DNA of 64,000 nt from Escherichia coli (GTDB lineage Bacteria > Pseudomonadota > Gammaproteobacteria > Enterobacterales > Enterobacteriaceae), in NCBI RefSeq assembly GCF_001677475.2, contig NZ_CP015229.1; one strand, written 5' to 3'. Below the pieces are notes generated by a model, which was not told where the DNA came from, searched no databases, and saw only the letters and a list, made by a program, of their open reading frames with translations. The stretch's first letter is position 1; every line of letters starts with the position of its first letter. This document shows, one piece after another, positions 61,086 to 61,467 of the stretch. The translations under genes and the position numbers were made by a program.

Positions 61086-61467
61086 CTGATACCGGATTGA
61101 AAAATCAAAAGGTTAGAAAATTTTCTTGGAATAAATGTCTTAAAATCGTACACGAAAAATCAATAAATTACATAACATTAAAGAAAAATATTCCAAGCCT
61201 TTCTTGACCTTTTTCGCTATCTGGATCTATATTCTCGACGCAACCGCAAAATCGGTTGTCGGGATTGGTCTCCCGGATGAAAAAGGCGGCAATAGGCGCG
61301 CTCGCGTCTTTTTTATTGCCGTTTGCATAGCCACACTCGCATTATGGTGGGTTGGCGGTGGCGCTCCGGCGCGCCGGTTCCTTTTTCCCGGTAAGACCAA
61401 CGCCGTCAGCTCACCACCCTGATTGGTCTCAGGTTGGTGATGATTCACATAGAAAAAGGATCATCCT

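Follow-up and report, generated by a model that had tools for sequence, protein, structure and literature searches.

A probable immI-type antisense-RNA control region with IsrK and C4 elements upstream of a truncated anti-repressor gene in an Escherichia coli serU prophage remnant

The GC-rich, hairpin-dense stretch around positions 61200-61450 of the Escherichia coli window (the whole 64,000-nucleotide stretch of DNA that we analysed) is very probably the RNA control region of an 'immI-type' anti-repressor cassette carried by a lambdoid prophage. The cassette is a member of the Rfam families isrK and C4, and the system is one already known, namely the IsrK/C4 antisense-RNA control of a prophage anti-repressor gene. 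Its sequence elements, their mutual complementarity and their co-evolution across the family are established at the level of sequence, and the way in which they would act is proposed below by analogy with studied relatives.

The stretch had attracted attention through its letters alone, namely its base composition, two strong hairpins and a short direct repeat, and all of these are present. The GC content is 56-57% at 61225-61449 (56% for the stretch as such), compared with 31-41% directly upstream and in the flanks. The first hairpin, GGCAATAGGCGCGCTCGCGTCTTTTTTATTGCC, was located in the window at 61288-61320 with the layout GGCAATA-GGCGCGCTCGCGTCTTTTT-TATTGCC, and it folds with -13.6 kcal/mol (z = -3.1), 2 of 200 shuffled sequences being equally stable. 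The second, CGGTGGCGCTCCGGCGCGCCG, occupies 61356-61376 and is enclosed in an 82-nt structure at 61340-61421, which on the plus strand reaches -41.6 kcal/mol (z = -4.33) with none of 200 shuffles as stable, compared with z = -1.17 for the fold of the minus strand. The direct repeat GATTGGTCTC has exactly two copies in the whole 64-kb window, at 61263 and 61421, and these contain the a1 and a2 target sites of C4, functionally the key feature of the region. Three open reading frames overlap the stretch, at 61204-61422 (plus strand), 61227-61448 (minus strand) and 61352-61585 (plus strand). The sequence-only reading took them for spurious and our results agree, as a Pfam search of the three gave no match and the upstream frame, the counterpart of orf45 in Salmonella phage Gifsy-1, is not conserved in the family; a coding explanation for the stretch was rejected on these grounds.

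Two of the roles that had been suggested for the stretch, a structured RNA and a regulatory leader, are borne out. A covariance-model search gave matches above the gathering scores for two Rfam families, isrK with 72.9 bits and C4 with 59.0 bits, and the stretch is the leader of the adjacent anti-repressor gene. The models Plastid-psbl-rps4, tmRNA, sX4, BM-sr0117, CRISPR-DR56 and L20 leader stayed far under their gathering scores in the same Rfam scan and were rejected. The matches of Plastid-psbl-rps4, tmRNA and sX4 merely overlap a tRNA-Ser fragment that lies next to the stretch.

All elements of the control region are on the plus strand. It begins with a sigma-70-type promoter, TTGACC-18 nt-TATATT at 61204-61233, which scores 10 of 12 matches in a promoter scan and is the sole promoter-like site in 60900-62100. 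Its TTGAC and TATATT are kept in 11 of 11 homologous loci. The promoter ends 6 nt before the match to the isrK model, and the predicted transcription start is near 61240. The IsrK-type leader or sRNA spans 61240-61314 (RF01394, 72.9 bits against a gathering score of 50), a full-length match of 75 nt that is closed by a Rho-independent terminator. Within it, hairpin 1 (61240-61259) has 7 pairs, of which 4 show compensatory change, and is 99.7% paired in 42 sequences; hairpin 2 (61260-61275) displays the target site a1 in its loop. The terminator found by the terminator scan has its stem at 61294-61309 and a U tract (T6) running to 61315. An outer stem, GGCAAT/ATTGCC at 61288-61320 (helix 3), is wrapped around the terminator hairpin and the U tract and has compensatory change at 5 of 6 pairs. 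This outer stem is the first of the two hairpins described above, and the target site b1 abuts it. According to these scans, the region's own promoter and Rho-independent terminator delimit a predicted IsrK RNA of 75-77 nt, and we infer that transcription starts at the predicted site and stops at the IsrK terminator. A third model, c4-a1b1 (RF03163), matches 61227-61279 with 42.7 bits (E = 5e-9) against a gathering score of 46.7, and close relatives reach 48-51 bits; the shortfall is due to a variant hairpin-1 stem in which pairing is kept.

The C4 antisense RNA starts 25 nt beyond the IsrK leader and covers 61340-61421, a full-length match to RF01695 with 59.0 bits against a gathering score of 45. 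It consists of a long closing stem and two internal hairpins, and its minimum free energy structure equals the centroid. In an alignment of 42 sequences, pairing reaches 99.5% in the closing stem, where 5 pairs covary, and 98.6% in internal hairpin 2. The alignment is poor at internal hairpin 1, with only 33% pairing, yet every sequence has a GC hairpin of its own there. Internal hairpin 1 is also the second of the two hairpins noticed at the outset. A conserved 3' CCACC adjoins the closing stem.

C4 carries two recognition segments, and the leader offers a pair of targets for each. The a' segment AGACCAA (61394-61400) is single-stranded inside the closing stem, and the b' segment UCCUUUUUC (61379-61387) forms the loop of the second internal hairpin. 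Upstream of C4, a1 (TTGGTCT, 61265-61271) lies in the loop of hairpin 2 and is complementary to a' over 7 nt, while b1 (GAAAAAGG, 61279-61286) is complementary to b' over 8 nt with a duplex energy of -8.8 kcal/mol. Downstream, a2 (TTGGTCT, 61423-61429) follows the C4 match by 2 nt; a small hairpin at 61419-61432 holds it in its loop, and it is again complementary to a' over 7 nt. The last site, b2 (GAAAAAGGA, 61452-61460), is complementary to b' over 9 nt with a duplex energy of -11.3 kcal/mol; it includes the Shine-Dalgarno AAGGA, stops 7 nt short of the ATG and lies in the loop of a hairpin at 61439-61465. The second target pair, GAAAAAGG in b1 and b2, matches the C4 loop UCCUUUUUC, and folding displays a1, a2 and b2 each in a hairpin loop. 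In the minimum free energy fold of the entire leader (61240-61470) a1 and b1 are paired with a' and b' in cis, a pairing that resembles 'structure A' of Hershko-Shalev et al. (PMC4825925). The energies of the loop-target duplexes are modestly better than those with shuffled targets, 29-30 of 500 shuffles being as good. This energy test is weakly discriminating, and hence the case rests on covariation and not on thermodynamics.

The gene controlled would be the one that follows C4 by 46 nt, counted from C4 to its ATG, with no open reading frame between. It is an ORF6N anti-repressor-like gene at 61468-61971 (plus strand), a homologue of AnrP, with matches to Pfam ORF6N (9e-22) and to PHROG 2379 'anti-repressor' (3e-79). 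Its product is 59% identical over 164 aa to STM2616/AnrP of Gifsy-1 (E = 3e-65), and through residue 162 it shares 96% identity with an E. coli protein of 186 aa. The 3' end of the gene has been hit by ISEc10, an IS21-family element with istA and istB that lies on the plus strand from 61956 to 64000 and runs past the window end. The native sequence of the gene extends to 61955 and the IS supplies the last 5 codons and the stop; the insertion cost the gene its last 24 codons, and the ORF6N domain (residues 12-96) is retained. Judged from the sequence, the RNA genes look intact and the output of anti-repressor protein is probably impaired.

The att junction proposed for the left side of the stretch proved to be correct. 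Positions 61024-61085 match, on the minus strand, the 3' 62 nt of a serU-type tRNA-Ser, as identified by comparison with the related locus L001, and represent the att core repeat at the integrase-distal junction. They differ from the full tRNA-Ser of L001 (34905-34994) by two compensatory changes in the variable arm, and ARAGORN found no complete tRNA at 61024-61085. Next to the core lies an AT-rich prophage end (61086-61203, ~31% GC), common to serU-integrated relatives only. NZ_LR882057, the closest genome, matches 61090-61955 with 98.7% identity, and its prophage is a lambdoid remnant of ~15 kb between zinT and serU. The gene order there is the ORF6N gene, a DUF4376 gene, hokD, replication genes, cro/cI-like genes, dicB, an exonuclease, a frameshifted integrase, the intact tRNA-Ser and mtfA, and no Q, lysis or structural genes were found in these ~15 kb. 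The host element is a degraded remnant of a lambdoid prophage integrated at serU, with the cassette at its integrase-distal end. The neighbour of the cassette had to be corrected from the first gene of an island to the last gene of a prophage. Other prophages hold the cassette at other places. Two E. coli prophages integrated at ompW (L010 and L011) have an identical C4 and an identical spacer from C4 to the ATG, and there the cassette is likewise terminal and adjoins tail-fibre genes; it lies in the nin region of Stx phages and just after Q in Gifsy-1.

The cassette is widespread. Our BLAST searches gave matches to the cassette with its gene in 283 phage records and, among 5,426 complete E. 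coli genomes, in 1,484. The phage records include many Stx-converting phages, Gifsy-1, and Hafnia and Actinobacillus phages. The layout is conserved across homologous elements: isrK followed by C4 stands upstream of an anti-repressor gene in 10 of the 10 homologous loci that were fetched. The helices covary. At this locus and in its relatives RefSeq lists the ORF6N CDS only, and hence two RNA genes, four target sites and a promoter go unrecorded in about one quarter of the complete E. coli genomes. The value of recognising the cassette is mainly one of annotation: it removes the spurious open reading frames, accounts for the GC-rich hairpins and identifies the island as a serU lambdoid prophage remnant.

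We collected 88 distinct leaders from the BLAST loci and from a pattern scan of IMG/VR; 82 of them could be parsed, which with the window makes 83. The six unparsed leaders include L044 and L083, whose C4 part is replaced by unrelated sequence. Complementarity of a' extends to 7 nt or more with the a1 of the same leader in 81 of the 83 leaders and with its a2 in 80, compared with ~3 nt between different alleles. The b' loop matches its own b1 over a mean of 6.1 nt and the b1 of other alleles over 3.7 nt, and for b2 the corresponding means are 7.3 and 4.4 nt. Overall, 9 a' alleles and ~30 b' loops occur in 41 combinations in this set. The specificity of the window, AGACCAA in a' and CCUUUUUC in b', is also found in L011 and L112. 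Among the 78 leaders scored, the commonest distance from the end of b2 to the start codon is 5-16 nt, and in most family members it falls within 0-16 nt, these distances being approximate because the automatic start-codon finder mis-called some starts and gave negative gaps.

The 42-sequence alignment gives the same picture pair by pair. The helix between a' and a2 is 97.3% paired with 69 compensatory cells, and that between a1 and a' is 98.6% paired with 71. When the partner is slid by 1-3 columns as a control, the pairing of these a-helices falls to 11-46%. The intramolecular helices are 78% paired compared with ~42% when slid, and 28 pairs have changed on both sides. The aligned sequences are related by descent, and the shuffle counts are therefore not probabilities; the conclusion of covariation is robust nonetheless, given how many independent alleles there are and how the slid controls behave. 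What the family conserves are RNA-RNA pairings with interchangeable specificities, and not the upstream open reading frame of the published Gifsy-1 model.

We propose the following mechanism for the cassette. The promoter would fire and most transcripts would stop at the terminator, giving the short 75-nt IsrK RNA, as the c4 regions of P1 and P7 and isrK of Gifsy-1 lead us to expect. Transcripts that read through would bear C4 and the anti-repressor mRNA, again by analogy with these phages, and C4 would probably be excised by RNase P, as in P1. RNase P excises C4 of P1 and P7, ~77 nt long, from a longer precursor. Work by Citron and Schuster in 1990 and 1992 reportedly identified the C4 of P1 and P7 as a repressor acting in trans. 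Following the P1/P7 and Gifsy-1 examples, C4 could pair with a2 and b2, so that the ribosome-binding site is occluded and the anti-repressor is off. The a1 and b1 sites could compete for the same segments of C4, either in cis or on free IsrK RNA, and excess IsrK would therefore relieve the repression. Direct occlusion of the ribosome-binding site is favoured because the b2 end sits close before the start codon. The exact mechanism of the variant in the window is extrapolated, as both orf45 and icd are absent. In Gifsy-1, anrP is transcribed from PisrK but silent in translation, and its activation by IsrK supplied in trans is 139-fold; the processed RNA STnc1160 maps to the position of C4, and the analogy to seqA and CI of the satellite phage P4 has been noted (PMC4825925). 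Relatives of CI and seqA are picked up by the C4 and isrK profiles of Rfam (PMC10111431).

A broader proposal would make direct C4 occlusion of the anti-repressor ribosome-binding site, with IsrK as a decoy for C4, the general IsrK/C4 mechanism and add an action in trans by orphan cassettes; we put this forward tentatively and regard it as a speculation that could well fail. Under this proposal the orf45 coupling in Gifsy-1 may be a lineage-specific addition, 'orf45' really being C4 RNA. An orphan cassette in a dead prophage may likewise act in trans, giving immunity to or cross-talk with superinfecting or co-resident phages that share its a'/b' specificity. If this is true, the 41 a'/b' combinations would amount to a combinatorial immunity code. 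The residual interest of the locus lies in these matters, i.e. the non-conservation of orf45, the combinatorial a'/b' specificities and the possible trans action of orphan cassettes.

Several other explanations have to be weighed against the immI-type reading. The remaining role that had been suggested for the stretch was an arm derived from attP with binding sites for integrase, IHF or Xis, in which the hairpins would be incidental. The stretch does lie within 120-370 bp of the tRNA-derived att core, but we give this idea practically no credence. In the BLAST search, positions 1-137 of the query were covered by H1 and H2 only, and other prophages match from query position 138, i.e. 61227. Only 61086-61226 can be att-arm-specific, since the similarity to non-serU prophages begins at 61227, and it is 61090-61226 alone that is specific to the serU prophages. 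From 61227 on, the sequence is common to the ompW prophages and to internal regions of Stx phages, Gifsy-1 and the Hafnia and Actinobacillus phages. Copies identical to the cassette lie in prophages at another integration site, which speaks against an attP arm, and this role was rejected for 61227-61450. The mode published for Gifsy-1, in which orf45 overlapping C4 is translated and coupled to the anti-repressor and IsrK opens the orf45 ribosome-binding site, appears very improbable as an account of the window. It has mutational evidence in Gifsy-1 itself (PMC4825925), where the ATGGTGGG conserved at the C4 5' end is the orf45 start, and the frame in L002 has 45 codons with its stop overlapping the anrP ATG. 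The corresponding frame in the window, from the ATG at 61344, is 16 codons long, and its stop lies within C4, 73 nt short of the anti-repressor ATG. Across the family the frame ends at the gene start in 4 of the 83 distinct leaders and varies from 3 to 77 codons, and the helices carry compensatory change of the RNA type.

It also seems unlikely, if less so, that the cassette works as in P4, where C4 acting on a1/b1 (equivalent to seqA) and a2/b2 (equivalent to seqC) would enforce premature transcription termination, at the IsrK terminator or further downstream, and not a translation block. The proximity of b1 to the conserved and covarying outer stem around the terminator (61288-61320) would suit such a role, and the isrK and C4 profiles have been equated with P4 seqA and CI (PMC10111431; PMC4825925). 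However, b2 holds the Shine-Dalgarno and is near the start codon in most family members, which fits ribosome occlusion, and in Gifsy-1 the transcriptional fusion is active while translation is off (280 vs 4 Miller units; PMC4825925). Termination and a translation block do not exclude each other; in P1, transcription termination follows as a secondary effect of the block on translation. A separate question is whether the cassette of the window still does anything. There is some chance, though not the larger one, that it is a dead relic with recognisable sequences and no remaining function, the prophage being defective and the target gene disrupted: ISEc10 truncates the ORF6N gene, and the prophage of the closest relative has shrunk to ~15 kb with a frameshifted integrase and lacks Q, lysis and structural genes. 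Against this, no damage is seen in the promoter, the terminator, any helix or any of the four target sites, the ORF6N domain at residues 12-96 is retained, and both C4 and its spacer to the ATG are identical to those of the ompW prophage L011, which has tail-fibre genes. C4 and IsrK could moreover still act in trans.

Among the known systems, the immI operon of P1 and P7 shares the order of elements with the cassette. The GenBank record of P1 gives the immI leader as the P1c4 promoter, a1, b1, the 77-nt c4 RNA, a2, b2, icd and ant1/2, and describes a2 and b2 as C4 binding sites for 'repression of icd ant translation'. The window has the same succession of a sigma-70 promoter (P1c4 in P1), hairpin 1 and hairpin 2 with a1, then b1, a terminator in an outer stem, C4 with its b' loop and single-stranded a', a2 at 2-3 nt past C4, b2 at the Shine-Dalgarno and the anti-repressor gene next, and in both systems the specificity is set by short co-varying sequences. 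The P1 leader itself is recognised by the C4 (68.8 bits), c4-a1b1 (51.0 bits) and isrK (35.1 bits, E = 6e-6, below threshold) models; the 'IsrK' RNA is therefore the a1/b1 leader with its terminator. Unlike P1 and P7, the window has no icd between C4 and the anti-repressor, so that the ribosome-binding site under b2 is that of the anti-repressor itself. This anti-repressor is a small ORF6N protein where P1 has Ant1/Ant2, the host is a lambdoid prophage and not a P1-type plasmid prophage, no C1 operator was noticed at the promoter, and the a' and b' sequences differ.

The isrK-orf45-anrP region of Gifsy-1 is homologous throughout, with isrK and C4 in both, the same arrangement of promoter and terminator, and an AnrP-type anti-repressor gene downstream (59% identity). 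It differs from the window in several respects. The orf45 frame is not conserved in the window (16 codons), and the anti-repressor gene of the window is truncated by ISEc10. In Gifsy-1 the antiterminator gene antQ lies directly upstream and is the circuit's final output. There is no antQ upstream in the window, which has the att junction and host DNA instead, because the cassette abuts the att site and is not downstream of Q; the closest full prophage copy (NZ_LR882057) has no annotated Q gene. The specificities are AGACCAA and CCUUUUUC in the window and CGCCAA and CGGUGAU in Gifsy-1. The cassette is not a strict immI operon, as it has no icd, nor a full Gifsy-1-type circuit, as it has neither orf45 nor antQ.

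The CI/seqA/seqC system of satellite phage P4 belongs to the same RNA family (C4 clan) and also makes a processed RNA with paired targets upstream and downstream of itself (PMC4825925; PMC10111431), but its outcome is the premature transcription termination of replication genes and not the control of an anti-repressor. The ant cassettes of Stx phages (phi24B ant, P27, 933W-like) have the same layout of isrK, C4 and an ORF6N-type ant. They differ in that the cassette lies in the nin region and Ant has ~225 aa with a P22-Ant-like C-terminal domain, whereas the protein of the window is the short form (186 aa when intact) encoded at a prophage end.

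The specificity modules of the IsrK/C4 cassette seem to recombine with one another, as suggested by four natural hybrid or decayed leaders from IMG/VR (L033, L025, L038 and L098), in each of which one target is mismatched to the resident C4 antisense RNA. The exposed segment a' of L033, GTTCCTAA, is matched by the downstream target a2 but not by the leader target a1, GATTGAGAC, and it is a2 that is mismatched in L025, L038 and L098. Two more IMG/VR leaders, L044 and L083, have unrelated sequence in place of the C4 part, and in another, L107, an additional insert separates the IsrK terminator from C4.

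In the allele of the window, the segment 61279-61315 holds a further complementarity: the leader target b1, GAAAAAGG, also matches the U tract of the terminator, and the two are paired with each other in the centroid fold predicted for the 75-nt RNA. This pairing is probably incidental, because the other alleles do not have the complementarity.

The partial tRNA-Ser forming the att repeat lies at 61024-61085 of the window. Its variable arm carries two changes that preserve the pairing, reading GGTAGAG...CCCCTAC where the closest relative's intact serU tRNA has GGTGGAG...CCCCCAC. This fragment also accounts for the sub-threshold matches at the same positions to two Rfam entries, a plastid 3'UTR family and tmRNA. 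In the closest genome, the span from zinT to the ORF6N gene (L001:19266-20377 against window 59894-60454) has no RefSeq annotation, and it holds a yodB-like ORF, the tRNA fragment and both RNA genes.

ISEc10 of the IS21 family (61956-64000; istA at 62049-63548 and istB from 63545) interrupts the ORF6N anti-repressor gene at its 3' end, so that five IS-derived codons stand in place of the final 24. The junction between ISEc10 and the ORF6N gene is absent from every complete E. coli genome of the collection searched. The Rfam and ARAGORN scans also found DsrA (42782-42868, minus strand), RseX (51204-51293, plus strand) and a tRNA Leu-Cys-Gly cluster (3955-4256, minus strand), consistent with a stretch of E. 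coli chromosome that extends approximately from leuZ-cysT-glyW to serU.

In the Stx-phage locus L003 (phage phiSTEC1589-Stx1c), a match to sRNA-Xcc1 (RF02221) at 3510-3600 lies directly 3' of the IsrK/C4/ant cassette and just upstream of the gene for the regulator Rha, making a second pair of a non-coding RNA and a regulator gene. A study of APSE phages found sRNA-Xcc1 upstream of an ORF6N gene as well (PMC7313666).
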